From Candidatus Uhrbacteria bacterium (GTDB lineage: Bacteria > Patescibacteriota > Patescibacteriia > UBA9934), in contig CALRCK010000004.1 in NCBI GenBank assembly GCA_943354605.1, positions 23,584 to 87,583 on the forward strand: 64,000 nt of DNA, in the 5' to 3' direction. Position numbers and translations under genes: made by a program. Below the pieces are notes generated by a model. It did no database searches. It saw only the letters and a program-made list of their open reading frames with translations, and had not been told where the DNA came from. This document shows, in pieces, positions 9,748 through 59,870 of this stretch. Each line of letters begins with the position of its first letter. Within the stretch, counting starts at the first letter, position 1.

Positions 9748-9777
9748 ATTGACAATCCGACTTTTAGCACTCTATAC
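9748..9777 (+). promoter_or_regulatory. Sigma-70-like promoter (TTGACA-N18-TATACT) upstream of clpB
   Basis: ttgaca at 9748-9753 and tatact at 9772-9777. The -10 lies inside the CIRCE spacer. Confidence 0.6.
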
Positions 9778-9789
9778 TTGAGAGTGCTA
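9763..9789. promoter_or_regulatory. CIRCE operator (HrcA binding site)
   Basis: Perfect TTAGCACTC-N9-GAGTGCTAA (spacer tatacttga), about 240 bp upstream of the clpB start. Confidence 0.85.
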
Positions 9790-10031
9790 ATTGTCGCAAA
9801 TAGCGTTCAAAATGCGCATGCACAGCTGGCGAGATGTTTCGTTTTCGCATTTCGCGACTGTCAAGTTGACTTTACACTTCACATGCAAATTTCCCAATGT
9901 TTTTGAATGTCGGATGTCAAGTCAAATTGACACGTACAATAGCGTAAAACACACCAGGCTGCTGACGACATTCTTTGTCCTTCAGGCCCATCCAAGGTTC
10001 AGTCAGATCCTTTTCATTATCATATTTCGAT

Positions 10032-23378: not shown

Positions 23379-25208
23379 TTAAAAATGATGCTTTTTGAGG
23401 ATCGCCTCACGCGCTTCCCGATATTTCCGTACGCGTTCTGGCTCCCATCCCAAATATTTCCAGGGGAGTCGATACATGAACGACGGCAACCACGACGACC
23501 CGATGCGCGATTCGCCATCAATCAACACATCGCACCACACGCCAGGAACAAGGACTCCGATATTGTGTTGTTCCAACATCGTGAGCCACACATCCCAATC
23601 TTGAAATCGCCGAATTGCCGGATCGAATCCCGGAAAATCCTTTCGTCGAACGAGCGATGTGGTGTGAATAAAATTCATCTTGCGTAATCGATCGCCGGAG
23701 AATGGAACGCCACGAAACACTTTCCAACCGAATTTGAATCCGCCGTACGCATAACTCGCCTCTGGGTGAACGATAAGATGCTGGACAAATGATTCAATCA
23801 TCCCCGGCTTCATCACGACATCCGCATCGCAGAACATGACGAACTCCCCTCTTGCTTCAGCGAGCCCACGGTTTCGCGCCGGATTCGCTCCAGCATTTTC
23901 CTGACGAATGACGTGGATATTCCCATCGAATTTCGCGAGAACCTCGGCGGTATTATCCGTTGAACCGTCATTAACTACGATGATCTCGATCGGTGAGTAC
24001 GTCTGACCGAGCACCGATTCAATACAGCGCCCGATGGTATTCGCGTGTTGGTAGGTTGGGATAACAACAGAGACCAACGCCGATTCGCGCATGGAAGGGG
24101 TCAGGTCGTTTATTGTCGTGTTTTGAAAAACCGACATTGTTTTTTCTCTCGTAAACTCCGCAATCACTCGCTCACGTCCGTCTCGACCAAGCTGATGACG
24201 CAGCGATTCGTCATTTGCGAGATCTACGATCGCCTTTGCAAGATCAGGAATCGTGTCATCGATGAGCAAACCGGTTCGTCCTTGAACGACCGCCTCATCA
24301 ACACCCGGCTGATTCGTAGCAATGACAGGAAGACCAAAGAGGGCGGCCTCGAGCGCAACAATACCAAATCCTTCGCGATCGTCGGTCGATTTCGTTGACG
24401 GCATCAAAAAGATGTCGTGCGTTGCGTACACTTCTGGAAGTTTTCCATCAGAGACGTGTTGCAGGATCGTTACGCGAGATTCAAGGTCGAGCGCCTTAAT
24501 CGCGTCGAGGATTTCCTTGCGCATCGGCCCGTCGCCAACAATCGTGTATGTCGAGTTCGGAATCGACTTCATCGTTTCAAGAACTTTCACATGGCCTTTC
24601 CGGGAAACAAGACGGCCGACGGTGAGTAATCTCGCCCCCCTCCGACTCCCCCCATAAATGGGGGGAGAGAATTCGCTGAGTGGCTCCCCTCCATTTACTT
24701 TTCCCCGGATGGGGATGGAGGGGCCGGGGGAGGCTTCTCGCGAGCCGACAAGAACATCTGCGGCCTCAACGAACTCATCGGCAACACACGGATACATCAC
24801 CAAACACGGTCGGTGCGCGAATGCGGTAATTTCGCTTGCGAGCGATTGCGAATTTGCGAAAACGCGACGTGCAAAAAACAACACAACCCTCATCACGAAT
24901 CGTTTTCGAGGAACCGATCGTGCGGCATCAAAATCAAGGCCGTGCAGCATGACGTCGTACGGTTTTCCCGTCATCAATCGGAATGCGAACGCTGCGGTTC
25001 CAATCGGCAACACGTGGCTCGTGAGCAAGACGTCGAAATCTTTTCGTCGATTCCAAAAGTTGCGAATCATTTCTCGGTACGCCGGAAATGATTTCCAGAT
25101 GAGCGGCGTGATCGATTCGGGAAATGTTGAAACAAGCGCAGAGCAATAGCGCGCGACTCCTCCCCGCTTTGGCGGGTAATCAGGCGTTGGAAGCAGGAAT
25201 CGCTCCAT
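23379..25208 (-). CDS. Bifunctional glycosyltransferase (N-terminal GT4 + C-terminal GT2), carrying an in-frame repeat insertion
   Basis: GT4 block (..VGRLVSRKGH..EGFGIVALEAALFGLPVIATN..) followed by a GT2 block (VSVVIPTYQHANTIGRCIESVLGQTYSPIEIIVVNDGSTDNT). The inter-domain linker carries the element-encoded peptide ..PSIPIRGKVNGGEPLSEFSPPIYGGS.. Confidence 0.7.
   Translation of the reverse strand: MERFLLPTPDYPPKRGGVARYCSALVSTFPESITPLIWKSFPAYREMIRNFWNRRKDFDVLLTSHVLPIGTAAFAFRLMTGKPYDVMLHGLDFDAARSVPRKRFVMRVVLFFARRVFANSQSLASEITAFAHRPCLVMYPCVADEFVEAADVLVGSREASPGPSIPIRGKVNGGEPLSEFSPPIYGGSRRGARLLTVGRLVSRKGHVKVLETMKSIPNSTYTIVGDGPMRKEILDAIKALDLESRVTILQHVSDGKLPEVYATHDIFLMPSTKSTDDREGFGIVALEAALFGLPVIATNQPGVDEAVVQGRTGLLIDDTIPDLAKAIVDLANDESLRHQLGRDGRERVIAEFTREKTMSVFQNTTINDLTPSMRESALVSVVIPTYQHANTIGRCIESVLGQTYSPIEIIVVNDGSTDNTAEVLAKFDGNIHVIRQENAGANPARNRGLAEARGEFVMFCDADVVMKPGMIESFVQHLIVHPEASYAYGGFKFGWKVFRGVPFSGDRLRKMNFIHTTSLVRRKDFPGFDPAIRRFQDWDVWLTMLEQHNIGVLVPGVWCDVLIDGESRIGSSWLPSFMYRLPWKYLGWEPERVRKYREAREAILKKHHF
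24635..24726. repeat. GC-rich two-module palindromic element inserted in-frame (copy 1, in the GT4-GT2 gene)
   Basis: Module A cctccgactccccccATAAATggggggagag. Module B cccctccatttacttttccccggatggggatggagggg. The host ORF stays open across it. Confidence 0.7.
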
Positions 25209-29316: not shown

Positions 29317-29937
29317 TTACCGCATTGAGTAAAACTCGATAATGAGCTTTGGATCGTATGCTTCCTTCAAATCATCCCCCATTGGAAGACTCACCACTTT
29401 GCCGACCAAGTTGTCACGGTGCAACCATCCTGCCGTGCGATGGGTTTTCAGGCGCTCCTCAAGATCCGCAAAGACCTTCTTGTCTTTCTTGCTCGCCTTG
29501 ATTTCAATCACGTCGTTGACCTGCACAGTATACGACGGAATGTTCAGCTTCTTGCCGTTCACAAAGAACATGCAGTGGCTGACCATTTGACGAGCCTGTG
29601 GACGCGTCTTCGCAAAGCCGAGGCGGTACACGGTGTTGTCCAAACGCTGCTCAAGCAAACGTCCGAGATTTTCTCCGGTGTTGCCCTCCATGCCGGTGGC
29701 CTTCACGAAGTAGTTTCGGAATTGTCGCTCCATGATACCGTACAATCGTTTTGCCTTCTGCTTTTCACGAAGCTGGGTTCCGAAAACCGAAACCTTTGCT
29801 GGCCGACCACCGGCCTTCCCGTGAACACCAGGAGCGTACGGACGCTTCTGCATCACCTTGAGCACACTCGTGGATGCCGACAATGCGACACCTTCACGAC
29901 GGCTCATCTTTCCCATTGGAATAAGAGTTTTTCCCAT
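29317..29937 (-). CDS. rpsD: 30S ribosomal protein S4
   Basis: 206 aa, S4 N-domain plus S4 RNA-binding domain (..RLDNTVYRLGFA..). Confidence 0.9.
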   Translation of the reverse strand: MGKTLIPMGKMSRREGVALSASTSVLKVMQKRPYAPGVHGKAGGRPAKVSVFGTQLREKQKAKRLYGIMERQFRNYFVKATGMEGNTGENLGRLLEQRLDNTVYRLGFAKTRPQARQMVSHCMFFVNGKKLNIPSYTVQVNDVIEIKASKKDKKVFADLEERLKTHRTAGWLHRDNLVGKVVSLPMGDDLKEAYDPKLIIEFYSMR

Positions 29938-29940
29938 AGA

Positions 29941-30378
29941 TTACATGCGACGAGCACGACGTGGACGGCACCCATTGTGTGGGACCGGCGTGGTGTCTTT
30001 AATGGAGAGCACGTTGAAACCGACCGTGTTCAATGCGCGCACTGCAGCGTCGCGGCCATTGCCGATACCCGTCACAAACACGTGCACATCCTTAAGGCCG
30101 AACGGTTCAACCTTTTCAAACACTTTCTTCACAATGACGCTTGCAGCGAAAGGCGTTGCTTTCTTTGGTCCCTTGAAGCCGCAGTTTCCCGCGCTCGACC
30201 ATGCCACGATGTTTCCGTTCGCATCGGTGAGCGACACGATGGTGTTGTTAAAGCTTGCGTGCACGTATGCGCGACCCTGAGGAATTTGGCGAACCACTTT
30301 CTTCTTTGCGGTCTTTGCACCAGCCTTTGCTGGCTTTTCGGCTTCCGTTGCGGGAGCGATAATTTCTTCTTCAGTCAT
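29941..30378 (-). CDS. rpsK: 30S ribosomal protein S11
   Basis: ..GRAYVHASFNNTIVSLTDANGN..RRARRM. Confidence 0.9.
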   Translation of the reverse strand: MTEEEIIAPATEAEKPAKAGAKTAKKKVVRQIPQGRAYVHASFNNTIVSLTDANGNIVAWSSAGNCGFKGPKKATPFAASVIVKKVFEKVEPFGLKDVHVFVTGIGNGRDAAVRALNTVGFNVLSIKDTTPVPHNGCRPRRARRM

Positions 30379-30381
30379 AGC

Positions 30382-30768
30382 TTAGGTCTTGGCAAGAGTA
30401 CGACGACCACTTCCGGCGGTCTTTCGAACGTTTCCTCGAACGGTTCGGGAATTCGACTTGGTGCGCTGTCCGCGAACCGGGAGGCCGCGGGTGTGGCGGG
30501 TTCCGCGATACGACGCAATATCCTTCAAACGCTTGATGTTTGAGAGAACGTCGCGGCGAAGTTCACCTTCTACGCGATATTCCTTTTCCACGATGACGCG
30601 AACCGCATTTTCCTGATCTAAGGTCAGGTCTTTCACGCGAATGTCGCCGCTCACCTTTGAACGCTCAATGACGTCCGCTGCGCGCTTTTCACCGATGCCG
30701 TAAATATACTGCAACGCGTAAAAAAGCTTTTTCTGAGTTGGGAGTGTAACACCAGCAATACGTGCCAT
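30382..30768 (-). CDS. rpsM: 30S ribosomal protein S13
   Basis: MARIAGVTLPTQKKLFYALQYIYGIG... Confidence 0.9.
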   Translation of the reverse strand: MARIAGVTLPTQKKLFYALQYIYGIGEKRAADVIERSKVSGDIRVKDLTLDQENAVRVIVEKEYRVEGELRRDVLSNIKRLKDIASYRGTRHTRGLPVRGQRTKSNSRTVRGNVRKTAGSGRRTLAKT

Positions 30769-30773
30769 AGATT

Positions 30774-30887
30774 TTAGCCTTGACGCTGCTTATGCTTAGG
30801 AGTCTTGCAAATGACGAGCACGCGACCTTCGCGGCGGATCACTTGGCAATCGCGGCACATTTTCTTGACGGAAGCGCGAACCTTCAT
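30774..30887 (-). CDS. rpmJ: 50S ribosomal protein L36
   Basis: Not in the ORF track because it is under 60 aa. The reverse complement reads [37 protein letters not shown]. Coordinates accurate to about 3 nt. Confidence 0.8.
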
Positions 30888-31014
30888 AGGGCGATGACTG
30901 AGGGCTAAGAGTAACGGAACTGACGGAAGAGAACCCTGAAGAAATAGACAAAATCATCAAGAACAAATTCAAGATGATTGTGAATAGGCTCGAGATGCCG
31001 ATCCGGAGAGTCTA

Positions 31015-31135
31015 GAACGTTTCCAGTTTAGGCCAGTTTTGATGAAGATTAAGGAAAGTTTCCGAGGCGTACTTCGTGGTACGTTGAGGAAATTTCCGAA
31101 AATCTGAGTCAAAAATGGACAAACCGGGGGCGTTC
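31015..31135. repeat. About 115-bp dispersed repeat (family 3, copy 1), diverged, between rpmJ and infA
   Basis: gtttccgaggcgtacttcgtggtacgttgagg...aaaatggacaaacc aligns to the copies at 40594 and 51128. Flanked by inverted tctagaacg / cgttctaga. Confidence 0.5.
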
Positions 31136-31350
31136 TAGAAACGGAACGTGATTCGTGCCTTTGTGAGATCATACGGGCTGATCTCCACTTTGACGTCATC
31201 GCCTGGCAGCACACGGATGCGATTTTTTCGCAGCTTGCCTGCCAAGTGGCCAATGACTTCGCGGTCGTTTTCGAGTTTTACCCGGAAGCTTCCACCTGGA
31301 AGGCTTTCCAGAATCTCTCCGCGCATTTCAATAAAGTCTTTTTCCGCCAT
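31135..31350 (-). CDS. infA: Translation initiation factor IF-1
   Basis: [71 protein letters not shown]. Confidence 0.9.
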
Positions 31351-31601
31351 AACTTTGCGATATGATACCACATTCACCTCAGTGGTGAGCGCGGTATTAC
31401 CGCTTCAGTAAAGCACCGGGATTGTAGGCCAGACGCGAAAAAGTGTCAATTATTTACCCACAAACGCCCTATTTTCCACCTTTTCATTGCTTTTCCCTTT
31501 ATTTTGTGCTATTCTTCCGCCGCGCCCGTCATTGATAGGCGTCTGTAACGGCCAGATCCGTCGTTGTCCCCGTCCCTCGCTCCCTCAATGGAGTTTCCCG
31601 C

Positions 31602-31976
31602 ATGTCCCGTTCGTCATCACAAACTGGTGCCCGCTTCCTCGCGGGCGATCGCTGCGAATCCCATCGCAGCACCCAGAACCGCCGGCCCAAGTCCGGTCCC
31701 GCCGCCAAGGGCTCCCCGCCCAGCAGCCACGCCCCAGAAGGCTACACGTCGGAGAAGTCCGGCACGGTCGTCGTCGTGCGCCGCAACGACATCGGTGCCG
31801 CCCCGGCACCGAACCGCTCCTCCGCCCATCACGAGCCCGGAGTCGTCATCCCGACGAAGTTCCCCGCGCCCAAGGCCGCCAACAGCAGCCCAGCAGACAC
31901 CGGCATGGCGTCGAACAACGGGCACTACCGAAACGGCCGCAGCGGCCGTTGCTCCGGCAAGCGCGCCTCGGGCTGA
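31602..31976 (+). CDS. Hypothetical low-complexity basic protein (high-GC island 4)
   Basis: 124-aa ORF with very high GC3 in this frame only. ggag sits 8 nt upstream of the ATG. Ser/Pro/Arg-rich with no recognisable domain. Could instead be a decayed or noncoding insert. Confidence 0.25.
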   Translation: MSRSSSQTGARFLAGDRCESHRSTQNRRPKSGPAAKGSPPSSHAPEGYTSEKSGTVVVVRRNDIGAAPAPNRSSAHHEPGVVIPTKFPAPKAANSSPADTGMASNNGHYRNGRSGRCSGKRASG

Positions 31977-32086
31977 TCGGGATCGGTCGGTCGGAGAACA
32001 CGGCGTCGCGCAGAACGTGCGCTACGCAAAGGCCGGTCGTCTTCCCCAGACGGCCGGCCTCATCGCATCTATGGGGATTTTTTTGT

Positions 32087-33967
32087 TTACGCCTTCTTTC
32101 CCAAAATCGCCTTAATGCGTCGAACGCCCGCCGACACAGCTTCTTCTTTCGCGATGGTGATACCGCCGAGTTCCCCCGTGTGTTCCACGTGCGGCCCTCC
32201 ACAAATTTCCTTCGAGAAGTCGCCGATCGAGTACACCTTAATCTTGTCACCAATCGTTGCGTACTTGTCGCCGAACAATCCAATCGCACCACGCGCCTTC
32301 GCCTCGTCGACAGTAAGCATCTCGAATTTCACCGGAAGATCTTTCTCAATCTGCTCGTTGACGATCCGTTCAACCTCAGCGATTTGCTCCGGGGTCATCT
32401 TCTCGCTGTGACTGAAATCGAATCGCAATCGCTCAGCGGTAATGTTGCTTCCTTTCTGCGCAACGTGATCGCCAAGCACGGTTCGCAACGCCTGATGCAA
32501 CAAATGCGTTGCAGTGTGCAACTTCGTCGTCTCAACAGAATGATCGGCGAGTCCTCCGGCAAACTTCTGCTCACTTCCCGCACGAGACAAATCTTGATGC
32601 TTCTTGAAATCGACTGCAAATTGGTCCGCGTCGACTTTCAGGTTGTGCGATCGCAGTAATTCTTCGGTCGTCAGCTCCAATGGAAAACCGAAACTCTGAT
32701 ACAGGTTGAACGCGTCAGTTCCTGTCACGCCGTTTCCACGATCGACAATCTTCTTCAATTCACGCAACCCTTGTTCAATCGTCTTTGCGAATTTCGTCTC
32801 TTCCATTTCGATCGCGCTCAAAATCGCCTCACGCTTCTCATCGAGACTTGGATACGCAACGTTATACATATCGATGTACGCCTCGGAAACCGATCGCACG
32901 ATCGCATTTGCAACGACGAGCTTACGTGCAAAGCGCACTGCACGACGGAGTAATCGGCGAACAAAATATCCTTGGTCTTTATTCCCCGGCAACACACCGT
33001 CGCCAATAAGGAAGGTTGCCGCACGAATGTGGTCGAGAATCACGCGGAACGCGTATGTATCAGATTCATTCGATCCATAGGTCTTATTTGTCGAATGTTC
33101 CAGAGCCAACCGCGCCGGTGCGAAGGCATCAATACGGAACATATCCGGATCACCGTTCACCGCGGATGCCACACGCTCCAATCCCCCACCAAAATCGACG
33201 TTGCGCTGCGGAAGCTCTGCAAATCCGTCTGCCGTCTTCACGTATTGCATGAACACGTTGTTGCCGATTTCCATAAACCGACCACAATCGCAGTTCACGT
33301 GGCACACCGGATCCGCGAGCGGAGACTTTTCGTGCAACCCAAGATGTTCACCGAAGTCCCAAAACATCTCCGTGTCCGGGCCACCAGGTTCGCCAACCGG
33401 CATGTTTGCCGGAACACCAGCGCGGCTCCACCAATTCTTTTTTTCTGGGTACGTAAAAATTCTCCCGCCCTGCAAGCCGTTCGTATCAGCATCTTCAACG
33501 ACCTTCGCGTCGATGCCTGCGGATGCAAAACATTTTGTCCAAAGCGCGATGGCCTCGTCGTCTCGTCCAACACCAATGTCGGCATTTCCCCGGAACACGG
33601 TCACGTACAAGTTTTTTGGATCGAGTTTGAGCTCACCAGTCAAAAACTCGTACATCCACGGAATCTGTTCATGTTTAAAATAATCGCCCAGGCTCCAATT
33701 GCCGAGCATCTCGAAGAATGTGGTGTGACGATTATCGCCAACTTCCTCAATATCGCCGGAACGGAAGCATTTCTGACTGTCGGCAATGCGCGTGCCAGCG
33801 GCATGCTTTTCTCCGAGCAAATACTGGATCATCGGTTGCATTCCAGAGCCGGTGAACAACGTTGTTGGATCATTTTCTGGTAACAGCGATGATGATGGAA
33901 TGATCACGTGGCCGTGTTTTGCAAAAAAATCGAGATATTTTTGGCGGATTTCGTTGGTGGTAAGCAT
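32087..33967 (-). CDS. alaS: Alanyl-tRNA synthetase, short form (catalytic + tRNA-binding + editing domains, no C-Ala domain)
   Basis: N-terminus MLTTNEIRQKYLDFFAKHGHVIIPSSSLLP...FTGSGMQPM. Editing-domain HxxxH motif (HTATHLLHQALRTVLGDH). 626 aa, against about 870 in typical bacteria. Confidence 0.85.
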   Translation of the reverse strand: MLTTNEIRQKYLDFFAKHGHVIIPSSSLLPENDPTTLFTGSGMQPMIQYLLGEKHAAGTRIADSQKCFRSGDIEEVGDNRHTTFFEMLGNWSLGDYFKHEQIPWMYEFLTGELKLDPKNLYVTVFRGNADIGVGRDDEAIALWTKCFASAGIDAKVVEDADTNGLQGGRIFTYPEKKNWWSRAGVPANMPVGEPGGPDTEMFWDFGEHLGLHEKSPLADPVCHVNCDCGRFMEIGNNVFMQYVKTADGFAELPQRNVDFGGGLERVASAVNGDPDMFRIDAFAPARLALEHSTNKTYGSNESDTYAFRVILDHIRAATFLIGDGVLPGNKDQGYFVRRLLRRAVRFARKLVVANAIVRSVSEAYIDMYNVAYPSLDEKREAILSAIEMEETKFAKTIEQGLRELKKIVDRGNGVTGTDAFNLYQSFGFPLELTTEELLRSHNLKVDADQFAVDFKKHQDLSRAGSEQKFAGGLADHSVETTKLHTATHLLHQALRTVLGDHVAQKGSNITAERLRFDFSHSEKMTPEQIAEVERIVNEQIEKDLPVKFEMLTVDEAKARGAIGLFGDKYATIGDKIKVYSIGDFSKEICGGPHVEHTGELGGITIAKEEAVSAGVRRIKAILGKKA

Positions 33968-40574: not shown

Positions 40575-40593
40575 ATGGAATATGATGGAAGCC

Positions 40594-40711
40594 TTCTAAA
40601 TTTAGGCGAGTTTCGGTGCGCGAGGATCACAGTTCGCGAGGCGTACTTCTCGGTACGTTGAGCGAATTTGCGACGCAGCAAGCCGAAAATAGACAAATTT
40701 AGGAGGTTTCC
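40594..40711. repeat. About 115-bp dispersed repeat (family 3, copy 2), abutting tRNA-Arg
   Basis: gtttcggtgcgcgaggatcacagttcgcgaggcgtacttctcggtacgttgagcgaatttgcgacgcagcaagccgaaaatagacaaatttaggagg. Conserved hairpin CGTAC-N6-GTACG. aaatttagg appears at both ends. Confidence 0.6.
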
Positions 40712-40788
40712 TGGTGCGTCTGGCGCGATTCGAACGCACGATCTCCTCCTTCGGAGGGAGGCGCTTTATCCAGCTAAGCTACAGACGC
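40712..40788 (-). tRNA. tRNA-Arg (anticodon CCG)
   Basis: Reverse complement reads GCGTCTGTAGCTTAGCTGGATAAAGCGCCTCCCTCCGAAGGAGGAGATCGTGCGTTCGAATCGCGCCAGACGCACCA. Cloverleaf has a 7-bp acceptor stem, anticodon loop CUCCGAA, T-loop GTTCGAATC, and an encoded CCA. Confidence 0.85.
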
Positions 40789-41234
40789 AGAATTGAGGAT
40801 CGGCCGACCAACATACTATACATCGCCACACCCGACGCGACGGAAACGTTCAACGATCGCTTTTTCATCATTGGAATCTCCACGATACCATCGAGTATTT
40901 TCAAGGTGTCCGCATCGATTCCCTCCACCTCACTTCCAAGAACAAGTGCAATCTTGTCGATGACGCAATCGGCGATATCAATCGCCCCCTCCCCCGTCTC
41001 CAAGCCCCAAACAGCATACCCCTCCGCCTTCAGCCCGTCGATCACCGCAACAATCTCCCCAGCCTCCCACGGAACCAAATCCTCAGCGCCAAGCGACACC
41101 TTTGCGATTTCCTTCCGGGGCGGCGTGCCCGTAATACCCGTAAGAAAGACCTTTTCCACGCCAAACGCGGCCGCATTTCTGAGAATGCTCCCAACGTTGT
41201 GCAGACTCCGGATATTGTGAGCAATGACGATCAT
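40779..41234 (-). CDS. SpoU/TrmH-family RNA 2'-O-methyltransferase
   Basis: SPOUT blocks (..VFLTGITGTPP..LVLGSEVEGI..EIPMMKKRSLNVSVASGVAMY..). The stop codon lies within the first 10 nt of the tRNA-Arg gene. Confidence 0.6.
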   Translation of the reverse strand: MIVIAHNIRSLHNVGSILRNAAAFGVEKVFLTGITGTPPRKEIAKVSLGAEDLVPWEAGEIVAVIDGLKAEGYAVWGLETGEGAIDIADCVIDKIALVLGSEVEGIDADTLKILDGIVEIPMMKKRSLNVSVASGVAMYSMLVGRSSILRL

Positions 41235-51062: not shown

Positions 51063-51127
51063 TGCACAGCCGATTGACGGAACGCCCCAAAATAGGTATA
51101 TTCTCGGCGCGCAAGAATTGTGAGAAC

Positions 51128-51245
51128 TTTCTAATTTTCGGCCAGTTTCGGTGCGCGAGGAGCAAAGTTCGCGAGGCGTACTTTACGGTACGGTGAGCGA
51201 ATGTGCGACGATGCAAGCCGAAAATGGACAAAATTAGGAAGTTCT
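51128..51245. repeat. About 115-bp dispersed repeat (family 3, copy 3), immediately 5' of tRNA-Gln
   Basis: gtttcggtgcgcgaggagcaaagttcgcgaggcgtactttacggtacggtgagcgaatgtgcgacgatgcaagccgaaaatggacaaaattaggaag. About 85% identical to copy 2. Confidence 0.6.
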
Positions 51246-51251
51246 CAATAA

Positions 51252-51325
51252 TCCGAGATCGTCTAACGGCAGGACAACAGACTCTGAATCTGTTTATCAT
51301 GGTTCGAATCCATGTCTCGGAACCA
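51252..51325 (+). tRNA. tRNA-Gln (anticodon CUG)
   Basis: TCCGAGATCGTCTAACGGCAGGACAACAGACTCTGAATCTGTTTATCATGGTTCGAATCCATGTCTCGGAACCA. Acceptor stem TCCGAGA/TCTCGGA, anticodon loop CTCTGAA. Confidence 0.85.
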
Positions 51326-51988: not shown

Positions 51989-53659
51989 CTACGCGAGACT
52001 GCCCCCAAGTTGGCTCACGAAATCCGTCACCGCGTCGCTCGTCTCCTTCACCGGAACGTGAACCGATGTAATGGTAACGCGGTGTTGCAATACTTTCTCA
52101 ATAGCGTCTTCCACAAAGCGCTTTGCTTTAGTTTCCTTCAGTGCATCGGCATGGAATGCGTATGCGCAAGAAAGCGTCACCACTGATCCTTCAACCTTGA
52201 CTGGCACGGCGCCACGCAGCACGAGCGGCAAGGCAACATTGTTTTCGGCAACAATCGCAATACATCGCTCCCATTTATTTACGATCTCTTCGAGCGGAAA
52301 GATTGGTGCTTCGGCGGATCCCGACGGCTGATCGGCAACAGCTGATTCCATTTGCTGGATAGGCGCAAAGTCGTAGCGGATTGGTGCGTCGGGAACGGCT
52401 TGGACCTCGATGATCGGGGTAACGACGGGAGCAACAGCGACAGGCCTCCCTCCGACTCCCTCCATAAATGGAGGGAGAGATGTCGGTGAAGAGGCAGTCG
52501 ACGGCCTCCCCCCATTTACTTTTCCCCGGATGGGGATGGGGGGATTGAGGGGGGCGTGTATCGCTGCGGTCGAGCCAACCTCACATGCATCCAAAATCGC
52601 GATCTCGAGTGGGATCTGCGGAATTGCGGGCAGACTCGATCTCGTTCTCGCAGACAATAATCCGTCGAGGAATATCTGAGATCGAGAAACTCCGAACACC
52701 GATCCTGCCGCTTTCACTCGTTCGATCGTCTTTGCGTCGTATGCGTCCATCGTCGTGTCTCCGAATGCGGCGAACATCACAGTGCGAACGTATTCCAAAA
52801 GCTCTTCGATGAGATGTTTTACGGATCCTCCATCGGCCACAAACGTTCCAACGATCCTGAGCGCCTTCTGCGCATCGCTCGCGGCAACAGCGTCGACGAT
52901 GTCGGTAACGACCGCGATGTTCGTCATTGGCAATACCAACGACGCAACGGCAAGCGTGACATTTTTTTCACCGAGTGCGAGCACTTGGCCAAGCAAACTT
53001 TCCGCATCGCGTAAACAGCCCTCGCTTAAGCGCGCAATCTGCGCAAGAACGTCGTCGTCAATCGTGAACCCCTCGGCCTCCGAAATCTTCTTGAGGCGCG
53101 GCATCATGACCACTGGTGGCACGCGATGAAACTCGAACCGCTGACAACGCGATGCAATGGTTGCCGGAATTTTATGCAGCTCAGTGGTTGCGAGGATGAA
53201 GATGGCATGCGCCGGTGGTTCTTCAAGCGTTTTCAACAACGCATTGAACGACGAACCTGAGAGCATGTGGACCTCGTCGAGAATAAACACCTTAAACAAC
53301 CCGCGACTTGGCGCAAATCGCGCATTCTCAATGATGTTGTCGCGAACATTATCGACACCGGTCTGCGACGCCGCGTCGATTTCGATACACGACATAAATC
53401 GACCCGACGCAAAATCGGTACACGATGAACACGTGTTGCACGGCTCAGACTCCCCCGCCTTTCGGTTCTCGCAATTGAGTGCTTTCGCGAGCAAACGCGC
53501 GATGGTCGTTTTCCCCGTTCCGCGTGGACCAGAAAAAAGGTACGCATGTGCGACCGTATTTTTTGCCAACTGTTGCTGAATGGTTCGCAACACATGCTCC
53601 TGTTCCGCAACATCCGCAAAGCACTGTGGACGGTATTTTCGATAAAGCGTTTCGGCCAT
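51989..53659 (-). CDS. dnaX: DNA polymerase III subunit gamma/tau, carrying an in-frame repeat insertion
   Basis: AAA+ clamp-loader N-terminus (YRKYRPQCFADVAEQEHVLRTI..GPRGTGKTT), zinc module (CNTCSSC). The variable linker carries the element-encoded ..NPPIPIRGKVNGGRPSTASSPTSLPPFMEGVGGRP.. Confidence 0.85.
   Translation of the reverse strand: MAETLYRKYRPQCFADVAEQEHVLRTIQQQLAKNTVAHAYLFSGPRGTGKTTIARLLAKALNCENRKAGESEPCNTCSSCTDFASGRFMSCIEIDAASQTGVDNVRDNIIENARFAPSRGLFKVFILDEVHMLSGSSFNALLKTLEEPPAHAIFILATTELHKIPATIASRCQRFEFHRVPPVVMMPRLKKISEAEGFTIDDDVLAQIARLSEGCLRDAESLLGQVLALGEKNVTLAVASLVLPMTNIAVVTDIVDAVAASDAQKALRIVGTFVADGGSVKHLIEELLEYVRTVMFAAFGDTTMDAYDAKTIERVKAAGSVFGVSRSQIFLDGLLSARTRSSLPAIPQIPLEIAILDACEVGSTAAIHAPLNPPIPIRGKVNGGRPSTASSPTSLPPFMEGVGGRPVAVAPVVTPIIEVQAVPDAPIRYDFAPIQQMESAVADQPSGSAEAPIFPLEEIVNKWERCIAIVAENNVALPLVLRGAVPVKVEGSVVTLSCAYAFHADALKETKAKRFVEDAIEKVLQHRVTITSVHVPVKETSDAVTDFVSQLGGSLA
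52446..52545. repeat. GC-rich two-module palindromic element inserted in-frame (copy 2, in dnaX)
   Basis: Module A ctccgactccctccATAAATggagggagag. Module B ccccccatttacttttccccggatggggatgggggg. Compared with copy 1 the stem changes compensate: CCTCCat/atGGAGG in copy 1 versus CCCCCat/atGGGGG here. Confidence 0.7.
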
Positions 53660-58559: not shown

Positions 58560-59126
58560 TTATTCATTAACAATTACTTTTGCAGGACGCAGAACAACGT
58601 CACCAATCTTCCATCCCTTGATCAGTTCTTCCACGATCTCGTGTTCTTTCTTTCCGGGCTCCGATCGGGAGCCGCCACTCTCGTGGAGATTTGGATCGAA
58701 GATGGTGCCGACGCTCGGAATCGGTTCAACTCCCATGTTCTTCATTGCTTCGGCGAACTGGCGCTCAATGTGGCCGATGCCTTGGAACCAGGTGTCGAAC
58801 TTTTTCTTGAACTCTTCCGAACACTCGCTGATGTCGGGAACGTGTTTGGTGACGTAGCCGAAGTTGTCGACGACGGGGAGTAGATCCTCTGCGAGATTCG
58901 ATCGAACTCGGCGGCGATCGTCGTCGCGGGCGCTGGAGTTTTGCTTTTGCAGATTTTCGTAATCCGCGAGAGCGCGCTTCCAGCCGGAGAGGTATTCGGC
59001 GCATTTCGTCTGAAGGGCGTGGAGGTCGGAAGCTGCCGCATCGGGCTCAGGCCCCCCTCCGACTCCCCCCATAAATGGAGGGAGAGGTGTCTCCTGATCT
59101 GGTCCGTTCTTTTCTTCGTCCGTCAT
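58560..59126 (-). CDS. grpE: Nucleotide exchange factor GrpE, carrying an in-frame half-element insertion in its N-terminal tail
   Basis: GrpE coiled coil and C-terminal beta-domain (..DNFGYVTKHV..GWKIGDVVLRPAKVIVN). The N-terminal tail reads ..QETPLPPFMGGVGGGPEPD.., encoded by the repeat. Confidence 0.85.
   Translation of the reverse strand: MTDEEKNGPDQETPLPPFMGGVGGGPEPDAAASDLHALQTKCAEYLSGWKRALADYENLQKQNSSARDDDRRRVRSNLAEDLLPVVDNFGYVTKHVPDISECSEEFKKKFDTWFQGIGHIERQFAEAMKNMGVEPIPSVGTIFDPNLHESGGSRSEPGKKEHEIVEELIKGWKIGDVVLRPAKVIVNE
59051..59086. repeat. GC-rich palindromic element, module A only (copy 3, in grpE)
   Basis: gcccccctccgactccccccATAAATggagggagag. Same orientation as copies 1 and 2. 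Confidence 0.65.
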
Positions 59127-59824: not shown

Positions 59825-59843
59825 AGGGCCTGTGAACGCTCAA

Positions 59844-59870
59844 TTAGCACTCAATAGTATAGAGTGCTAA
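59844..59870. promoter_or_regulatory. CIRCE operator (HrcA binding site) of the hrcA-grpE-dnaK operon
   Basis: Perfect TTAGCACTC-N9-GAGTGCTAA (spacer aatagtata), 20 bp upstream of the hrcA start. Confidence 0.9.

Follow-up and report, generated by a model that had tools for sequence, protein, structure and literature searches.

Hairpin repeats of bacteria and the rod family

REP and REPIN hairpins are recognised by Y1 HUH transposases, and the ends of IS200/IS605 insertion sequences are recognised by TnpA. Patescibacteria, with genomes of about 1 Mb, carry very few known mobile elements. The REP/REPIN-RAYT and IS200/IS605 systems both operate by a logic of single-strand hairpins (PMC3116915, PMC6006769). 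Here, a hairpin repeat was analysed in a 64,000-nucleotide stretch of a Candidatus Uhrbacteria genome (contig CALRCK010000004.1, positions 23,584 to 87,583), the whole of which is referred to as the window. Three copies of about 125 nt each are present in the window, all on the + strand, and each folds into a single long, rod-shaped hairpin; the repeats are therefore called rods. Rods are probably a family of non-autonomous mobile hairpin repeats, like REPINs or MITEs (miniature transposable elements with inverted repeats), that is selected as single-stranded nucleic acid.

Like the repeats of REPIN/REP-BIME-RAYT systems, rods are non-coding, multi-copy and intergenic, form long hairpins of about 100 nt and lie in either orientation. 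As in REPINs, the hairpin is kept by compensatory change, and long persistence goes together with turnover of single copies; in one rod lineage, a single-copy Y1 gene flanked by the repeats may correspond to the arrangement of REPIN-RAYT systems. However, in a REPIN two short REP palindromes (GTAG or CGTC head) form a doublet whose tip is a poorly conserved spacer, whereas a rod is one continuous hairpin with the tip as its most conserved part, and no 20-40-nt REP palindrome units with a GTAG/CGTC head in inverted pairs were found in the Patescibacteria rods. By eye alone, ends that may resemble CGTC/GTAG were noticed in the versions from Acidobacteriota and Wenzhouxiangellaceae. Furthermore, REP families are genus-specific, while the rod apex is common to about ten phyla, and the Y1 gene that neighbours rods is of the TIRYT type, with inverted repeats of its own and no known REP partner (PMC6006769).

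Hairpin MITEs such as the Neisseria Correia elements, enterobacterial ERIC/IRU and pneumococcal RUP/BOX share with rods a length of 100-150 bp, complementary ends, dispersal in transcribed intergenic regions in both orientations, presence/absence differences and the formation of long RNA hairpins if transcribed. These families are restricted to one genus or family and have terminal repeats with a TA or fixed-length target duplication, in contrast to rods, which have no consistent duplication and are characterised by covarying termini, strand-specific wobble pairs and a centre conserved across phyla. IS200/IS605 elements resemble rods in having a folded hairpin on one strand (used for recognition there, and under selection here), no obligatory target duplication and insertion by a short specific sequence (GATTA at two rods), and precise excision of their kind would explain clean empty sites. 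Unlike these elements, which have two different subterminal hairpins and a lagging-strand bias, the rod is a whole-element hairpin with no such bias and no linked tnpA or tnpB. Integron attC sites, which are imperfect palindromes of 57-141 nt acting as folded single strands, also show structure conserved over sequence, distribution across phyla and conserved unpaired bases, which provide strand selectivity in attC. The base is conserved in attC, with R''/R' boxes (RYYYAAC/GTTRRRY), and the tip is variable, while rods show the reverse, lack the boxes at their bases and are found outside cassette arrays, with no integrase nearby.

In their working, rods come closest to REPINs and to hairpin MITEs such as Correia, ERIC and RUP. 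Because no REP head or doublet, termini as the conserved part, consistent duplication, parent insertion sequence, attC boxes or Rfam match was found, rods lack what defines each of these known families. They fall within the non-autonomous hairpin repeats, set apart by the cross-phylum apical motif and, in Patescibacteria, by placement flush with tRNA genes.

Anatomy of the rods and selection on the fold

A repeat search grouped positions 40594-40708 (the reference), 51129-51243 (88% identity) and 31020-31134 (65% identity) into one three-copy family, and a covariance model built from relatives scored the three copies at 130-144 bits (E-values of 1e-29 to 1e-32), which bears out the three same-orientation copies of the original prediction, made from the DNA sequence of the window. 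With filters off, the model detected no fourth copy in the 64-kb window. Copies are spaced about 10 kb apart among housekeeping genes (Table 1). The + strand folds of the three copies have z-scores of -5.8 to -7.4, while the minus strand folds at only -36 to -37 kcal/mol. Across the family, the unit is about 125-135 nt long and encodes no protein.

From base to tip, a rod consists of a basal helix (14-20 bp), followed by a small internal loop and a helix of 7 bp (GUUUCGG/CCGAAAA); then come an asymmetric loop rich in purines (5' GAGG/RAGG opposite 3' GACGA/RACG), a helix of 5-10 bp, a second loop that sets GAGG against UUGA (interpreted as tandem G.A/A.G and then two G.U pairs) and, at the end, the 6-bp stem CGUACU/GGUACG with a tetraloop that is different in every copy. 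The original prediction had described this tip as a CGTAC/GTACG stem with 6-nt loops; the stem is one pair longer, being closed by U.G, and the variable loop is a tetraloop. The apex consensus is GAGGCGUACU-NNNN-GGUACGKUGAG, and apex columns were invariant in two alignments (A3, A5). Both purine-rich internal loops are conserved (5' RAGG versus 3' RAC..G, and GAGG versus UUGA). Rod ends are complementary, often TAGAAC...GTTCTA; the termini differ between phyla and covary within a phylum, and the apex is the most conserved part. Flanks are often TA, which represents an extension of the helix, as AA..TT and GA..TC flanks were also seen. On inspection by eye alone, K-turn, T-box Stem I and attC readings of the rod loops were set aside, as the bulge, specifier or R-box features that define them are absent.

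Pairing was analysed in 24 Patescibacteria-type copies over 46 pairs, with 500 shuffles of the 3' partners. Standard pairs occupied 96.2% of pair cells versus 81.1% with shuffled partners, and this value dropped to 33-44% when partners were slid by 1-3 columns. Double (compensatory) changes were present in 28 of the 46 pairs versus 16.9 expected, and none of the 500 shuffles reached the observed values; relatedness among copies is corrected for by the slid control, in which the gap is large, and not by the shuffle control. In the cross-phylum alignment, 21 of 31 predicted pairs carried compensatory double changes, and conservation extended past the apex to loop nucleotides (5' RAGG and 3' RAC..G). 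G.U was found in 102 pair cells and A.C in 9, so that paired cells would amount to 87.7% on the opposite strand. Because G.U so greatly exceeds A.C, the hairpin is selected as a single strand, namely the window + strand, and the sequence alone fits RNA or DNA. In copies 2 and 3, the basal helix differs from that of the orthologues in relatives by compensated changes and the fold is near perfect, which implies continuing selection or homogenisation of resident copies rather than neutral decay.

These properties are also what would be expected if rods were multi-copy structured small RNAs, with apex and loops binding a conserved cellular protein or RNA, many of the Patescibacteria copies being pre-tRNA leaders released by RNase P, and new copies arising by duplication. 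This main rival explanation, judged unlikely overall, is favoured by the very strong covariation, the strand-specific pairing with G.U, the conservation of internal-loop nucleotides and apex across about ten phyla and the compensated changes by which orthologous copies hold their fold. Evidence on its other side comes from the behaviour of individual copies, described below.

Distribution across phyla

Scanning of the apex pattern GAGGCGTACTNNNNGGTACGKTGAG against 185,579 species genomes, where about 1 match would be expected by chance for 20-21 specified bases (our own estimate), returned at least 110 matching stretches, a sample biased towards conserved apices by the requirement for an exact apex. 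Relatives were read as blocks of 8-20 kb, with loci given L numbers and crude gene calls by longest open reading frame (ORF). About ten phyla are represented among the matches listed for these loci. Patescibacteria among them are Uhrbacteria, Saccharimonadia and Parcubacteria, and the other taxa include Nitrospirota, Acidobacteriota, Holophagae, Thermoanaerobaculales, Desulfobacterota, Syntrophaceae, Wenzhouxiangellaceae, Bdellovibrionales and Rokubacteria; more than 45 of the exact-core copies listed came from a single Bacillota metagenome-assembled genome (MAG). Nearly all matches fold, on the strand of the pattern, into rods of the same architecture. The covariance model also detected copies without the exact pattern, in which the apex itself covaries (GAGA/UUGA, GAGC...GUGAG and a CAGCC/GCUGG stem). 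Relatives carry up to three rods per 8-kb block and many per genome. The conservation of the apex across phyla points to a conserved recognition partner.

The original prediction had proposed a comparison with Rfam, and no matching family emerged: at the gathering threshold, Rfam 15 returned only tRNAs in the window and 18 diverse loci, which counts against the small-RNA reading. At an E-value threshold (copy 2 and seven small loci), the sole match overlapping a rod was the T-box family RF00230, at 24.5 bits versus a gathering score of 93, and this match arose because a genuine antiterminator adjoins the rod, the rod itself not being its source. No match to the core pattern was found in viral contigs, and BLAST found none in plasmids and phages. 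In the literature, the core sequence was matched only in unrelated primers, and nothing relevant on MITEs of Patescibacteria was found.

In the Bacillota MAG JAMCWA01 (L006, L013, L019, L065 and L072), rods sit inside a unit of about 265 nt that is flanked by the 29-nt direct repeat CCTAGGAGACYGCTGACGAACTGCGTTTT. Upstream of the rod there is a second version of its 3' arm, so that the 5' arm could pair either way, and about half of the rod copies in this MAG have an extra 54-nt hairpin in the 3' arm.

Gain and loss of copies

Eight congeneric genomes (L191-L198), found through the InfA protein of the window, have a DNA identity to it of 78-94% over 6-15 kb; among public relatives, the Hainich groundwater MAG H41-bin182_1 (JBBTSM01, here L191) is the closest, at about 80-93% identity. 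A block of 131 nt containing copy 1 (about 31004-31134) is absent from all eight, which align straight from 31003/31005 to 31135/31136, and copy 1 is therefore a lineage-specific insertion in the lineage of the window. The search for an empty site between infA and rpmJ that the original prediction had recommended thus gave a positive answer, and its statement that the element disrupts the adjacency of these genes agrees with a spacer of 247 nt in the window versus 108 nt in the closest relatives. In the empty sites, a small hairpin follows the infA stop codon, and copy 1 sits in its TAGAA loop; TAGAA is present on both sides of the filled site and once in empty sites. A differently diverged rod occupies the same spot in a more distant genome (L112), in the same orientation as copy 1. 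It may have inserted independently into this hairpin, or it may be an old copy that other genomes have lost.

A second insertion could be read exactly. In L191, a private rod follows the rpsI stop codon and precedes the operon terminator, at a site that is empty in the window and in five other relatives; the filled version differs from the empty one only by the element and a second GATTA, a 5-nt direct repeat. A rod in L004 is flanked by GATTA too. Copy 2 has orthologues at the same place in L191 and L192, with compensated changes, and the promoter-rod-tRNA-Gln unit of copy 3 is common to L098 at about 80% identity. Copies 2 and 3 are older and shared with relatives, and copy 1, the most diverged of the three, appears to be recent. 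Signs of rearrangement at the DNA level are also seen: L085 carries a full rod with a truncated piece of a rod next to it, and in the Bacillota variant a 54-nt hairpin has been inserted into the rod 3' arm. Rod copies have been gained or lost between congeneric genomes.

For the small-RNA reading, the absence of copy 1 from eight congeners, the copy private to a sister genome, the variation from one to dozens of copies per genome and the existence of truncated and interrupted rods are unfavourable. Another rival reading is that rods are classical cut-and-paste MITEs, deletion derivatives of DDE insertion sequences whose terminal repeats are recognised as double-stranded DNA and which create a target duplication of 5 bp (or TA). 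The complementary ends, the variable presence of copies between relatives, the paired TAGAA at copy 1 and the GATTA repeat, seen at the sole insertion verified against empty sites and again in L004, are all in line with such elements. Nonetheless, an origin of this classical kind is improbable: a conserved centre with variable, covarying termini is the reverse of what recognition of terminal repeats by a transposase would produce; compensatory changes along the whole arm, with G.U outnumbering A.C by 11 to 1, are not explained by double-stranded recognition; no parent insertion sequence with rod ends was found in the 8-kb blocks of about 110 loci; and no general signal of target duplication was seen over 34 copies. 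The original prediction had raised the MITE option, and what stands of it is the mobile element (multi-copy, non-coding, with complementary ends and empty sites), as opposed to the classical MITE and the signatures cited for it. Its direct repeat aaatttagg at copy 2, offered as a target duplication, contains the self-complementary AAATTT, and both occurrences are arms of the basal helix; the inverted repeat tctagaacg/cgttctaga at copy 1, offered as a terminal repeat, is the base of the copy 1 hairpin.

tRNA genes, transcription and orientation

The features around the three copies are collected in Table 1. Copy 1 is antisense to the ribosomal-protein operon in which it lies. The 3' end of copy 2 is flush with the encoded CCA end of tRNA-Arg(CCG), which is convergent with it, and its 5' end is 13 nt from the start of a minus-strand glycosyltransferase gene. 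Copy 3 forms the leader of the tRNA-Gln(CUG) transcript and ends about 4-6 nt upstream of the mature tRNA 5' end. ARAGORN confirmed the tRNA positions beside copies 2 and 3 that had been noted beforehand, although the minus-strand location of tRNA-Arg had gone unmentioned. The product of infA (71 aa) is recorded in at least 24 contigs, and for a RimK-like protein encoded beside copy 3 no identical protein is on record.

Table 1. Positions of rods, rod apices and neighbouring features in the window
Feature	Position	Strand	Basis or remark
Rod copy 1	31011..31139	+	129.7 bits; -51.8 kcal/mol, z -7.4
Rod copy 2	40587..40711	+	130.6 bits; -49.6 kcal/mol
Rod copy 3	51121..51247	+	144.4 bits; -54.4 kcal/mol, z -6.9
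Apex of copy 1	31064..31088	+	GAGG-CGTACT-TCGT-GGTACG-TTGAG
Apex of copy 2	40638..40662	+	Apex pattern match and alignment
Apex of copy 3	51173..51197	+	Apex pattern match and alignment
tRNA-Arg(CCG), encoded CCA, 3' end touching copy 2	40712..40788	-	ARAGORN; Rfam tRNA 67 bits
tRNA-Gln(CUG), copy 3 as 5' leader	51252..51325	+	ARAGORN; Rfam tRNA 63 bits
Sigma-70-like promoter TTGACG-17-TATATT, upstream of copy 3	51074..51102	+	Promoter scan, 10/12 matches
infA	31135..31350	-	ORF list; stop codon directly adjoins copy 1 (opposite strand)
infA promoter TTGACA-17-TACAAT	31449-31421	-	Promoter scan
rpmJ, downstream of copy 1 in infA operon	30774..30887	-	ORF list; tblastn

Among the matches listed, a tRNA edge lies within about 20 nt of a rod end in 7 of 32 Patescibacteria exact-core copies versus 0 of 84 in other phyla, and the rod 3' end faces a tRNA in 9 of 32 model-detected Patescibacteria copies. 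Where rod and tRNA share a strand, this facing end is 0-8 nt ahead of the tRNA 5' end; where they are on opposite strands, it is flush with the CCA end. L101 has an antisense rod that occupies the spacer between tRNA-Val and tRNA-Ala. Copy 3 is in sense behind its promoter, which is predicted to drive a transcript of rod plus tRNA-Gln, and the rod orthologous to copy 3 in L098 has TTGACG-18-TATATT upstream in the same promoter-rod-tRNA-Gln layout. With a tRNA 4-8 nt downstream of both these rods, RNase P would set a precise 3' end, which speaks for the small-RNA reading, as does the abutment in Patescibacteria generally. The lack of abutment in other phyla does not fit that reading, nor do copies 1 and 2 and the rods of L112, L191 and L101, which are antisense inside transcription units with no promoter detected. 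At copy 1, transcription from the strong infA promoter is predicted to read antisense through the rod, and the promoter scan detected no + strand promoter before copy 1 or copy 2.

Rod orientation relative to local transcription is mixed, both orientations being found with respect to tRNAs and to genes. All three window copies lie on the C-rich strand, whereas over 119 copies listed the orientation relative to GC skew was 68:51, without bias; it was about even in Patescibacteria and 32:13 in the Bacillota MAG. Antisense, promoterless copies 1 and 2, a sense copy 3 and no skew bias are more readily explained by a DNA repeat than by a gene or a cis-regulator. Throughout the window (1-64000), the + strand GC skew is negative, with a cumulative value of -1.24, and the minus strand carries the ribosomal-protein operon, so that the window lies within one replichore with the minus strand leading.

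Abutment of tRNA genes also raises the question of whether rods are a cis-acting module, for example a promoter or processing signal of tRNAs, a terminator, or a leader that senses tRNA as T-boxes do. In an asnS-like leader, a rod precedes a genuine T-box antiterminator by 4 nt, and some rods end in a Shine-Dalgarno-like GAGGAAG just ahead of a start codon, both of which would agree with a cis-acting role. However, the tRNA-Gln promoter is upstream of the rod, and a TGGACA-16-AATAAT match inside copy 3 was rejected as a promoter, as its start would fall within the tRNA; copies 1 and 2 being antisense to the local transcription units, a tRNA-proximal promoter, suggested in the original prediction, is rejected. 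No T-run follows the hairpin at any of the three window copies, the low T-box score comes from the adjacent antiterminator, the contexts of rods are unrelated and the rod is dispensable at infA-rpmJ. By its mixed orientations and empty sites, the cis-module reading is largely refuted, and we consider it very improbable.

In a Patescibacteria MAG, the T-box antiterminator GGUGGCACCGCG with its terminator precedes an asnS-like gene (L105, 1790-1880, minus strand, and L082), with a rod immediately 5' of the antiterminator. The upstream 85 nt do not resemble a canonical Stem I.

The search for a mobilising enzyme

The 8-kb blocks around the roughly 110-120 copies listed revealed no recurrent protein family next to rods, and in about 110 of the listed loci neither a parent insertion sequence with rod ends nor an ORF flanked by rods was found. 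No tnpA was present in the window, and no tnpA or tnpB was linked to rods. In L018, a gene for protein P0001, which has a Y1_Tnp domain and a C-terminal helix-turn-helix (HTH) domain (Pfam), is separated from a rod by 75 nt, and two rods come after it. P0001 is single-copy, and MreB-GT4-TrmB-Y1-holB synteny is kept with a 58%-identical ortholog. A second gene of the P0001 family, from a deltaproteobacterium (L008), is inserted 7 nt inside a rod base, and a Y1 homolog in genome L200 has no rod nearby. The TIRYT-type Y1_Tnp P0001 is a candidate only for the enzyme that mobilises rods.

Both Y1_Tnp plus HTH genes of the TIRYT type (L018, 7098-7999; L008, 3945-4990) lie between GGGGTCAG inverted repeats of 23-29 bp. 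At the L008 insertion, the 3' end of the upstream gene is duplicated over about 170 nt.

Weighing the mobile-hairpin reading

Gain and loss of copies, variable copy number, the lack of coding, indifference to the direction of transcription and the presence of fragments and interrupted copies together argue for a mobile repeat over a gene or a cis-regulator. The strand-specific, covarying hairpin with its conserved centre argues against recognition of double-stranded terminal repeats and for a folded single-stranded intermediate. A rod would be copied or moved through such an intermediate, either single-stranded DNA or RNA, in which an enzyme acting in trans would recognise the folded hairpin and the conserved apex; the step from a selected folded single strand to an HUH-type enzyme as its mover is one that we infer. 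In the window, copy 1 would represent a recent insertion into the loop of the small hairpin just after infA, and copies 2 and 3 would be old residents of a tRNA trailer and of a pre-tRNA leader, where additional sequence can be accommodated.

Several observations weigh against this reading. The left junction of copy 1 is not clean, as GAGAGTC is present where empty sites have T, and over 34 copies no general target-site duplication was seen (mean longest flanking repeat of 4.06 versus 3.97 in shuffled pairings). No autonomous element or enzyme sharing rod ends was found in the blocks examined. The Y1 genes at rods are bounded by inverted repeats of their own (GGGGTCAG) that are unrelated to rods, no REP-like partner has been reported for the TIRYT subclass of Y1 transposases (PMC6006769), and their adjacency to rods may mean only that TIRYT elements insert near hairpins. 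The lagging-strand orientation bias known for IS200/IS605 is absent. A 25-nt motif kept across about ten phyla is abnormal for lineage-restricted MITEs or REPs and more typical of a functional RNA, and the compensated, perfect pairing of orthologous old copies can also be explained by selection on RNA in situ. A mixed picture, in which a mobile element has resident copies that also serve the host, is possible.

A broader and rather doubtful proposal is that rods constitute an unrecognised, cross-phylum class of mobile elements, in which the apex and the RAGG/RAC loop would dock a widespread enzyme (an orphan TIRYT/RAYT-like Y1 HUH enzyme or a reverse transcriptase) and insertion in Patescibacteria would be targeted to the boundaries of tRNA genes. 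In an RNA-centred version of this proposal, rods would be a new and widespread non-coding RNA matured by RNase P from pre-tRNA leaders.

Other repeats and reading frames in the window

At many loci (for example, window 31564-32115, 29419-30543 and 40714-41220), long ORFs that are spurious lie antisense to real genes or pass through tRNA-Arg or rods. Frames through rods cluster as 'conserved proteins' between genomes and probably give rise to false hypothetical proteins when MAGs are annotated.

A second repeat family, found at 24631-24734, 52441-52555 and 59048-59091, consists of a palindromic unit of about 45-100 nt with G/C tracts, such as CCCTCCGACTCCCTCCATAAATGGAGGGAG ... GGGGATGGGGGG. Its copies lie inside long ORFs, namely a dnaX-like gene (peptide LPPFMEGVGGRP), a grpE-like gene (PLPPFMGGVGGGPEP) and a 609-aa ORF, and by analogy the family looks like an in-frame palindromic insertion element of the kind represented by Rickettsia palindromic elements.

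An inverted pair, TTAGCACTC-N9-GAGTGCTAA, with 90% complementarity, occurs at 9764-9793 and 59841-59870, upstream of a clpB-like gene and beside an hrcA-grpE-dnaK cluster. We take it to be the CIRCE/HrcA operator of ordinary heat-shock regulation.

Significance

Rods are a hairpin repeat that is turning over between Patescibacteria congeners and that occupies pre-tRNA leaders, tRNA trailers and the spacers of ribosomal-protein operons. Patescibacteria share the conserved apex with Nitrospirota, Acidobacteriota, Desulfobacterota, Bacillota and Gammaproteobacteria, a breadth not seen in ordinary REP or MITE families. A covariance model of the rod would prevent spurious ORF calls across the elements and would flag insertion polymorphisms for strain tracking in groundwater metagenomes. 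If the recognition partner belongs to the large orphan class of HTH-bearing Y1 transposases, rods would supply the substrate of these enzymes; if rods act as RNA, they would represent a widespread, uncatalogued structured RNA.

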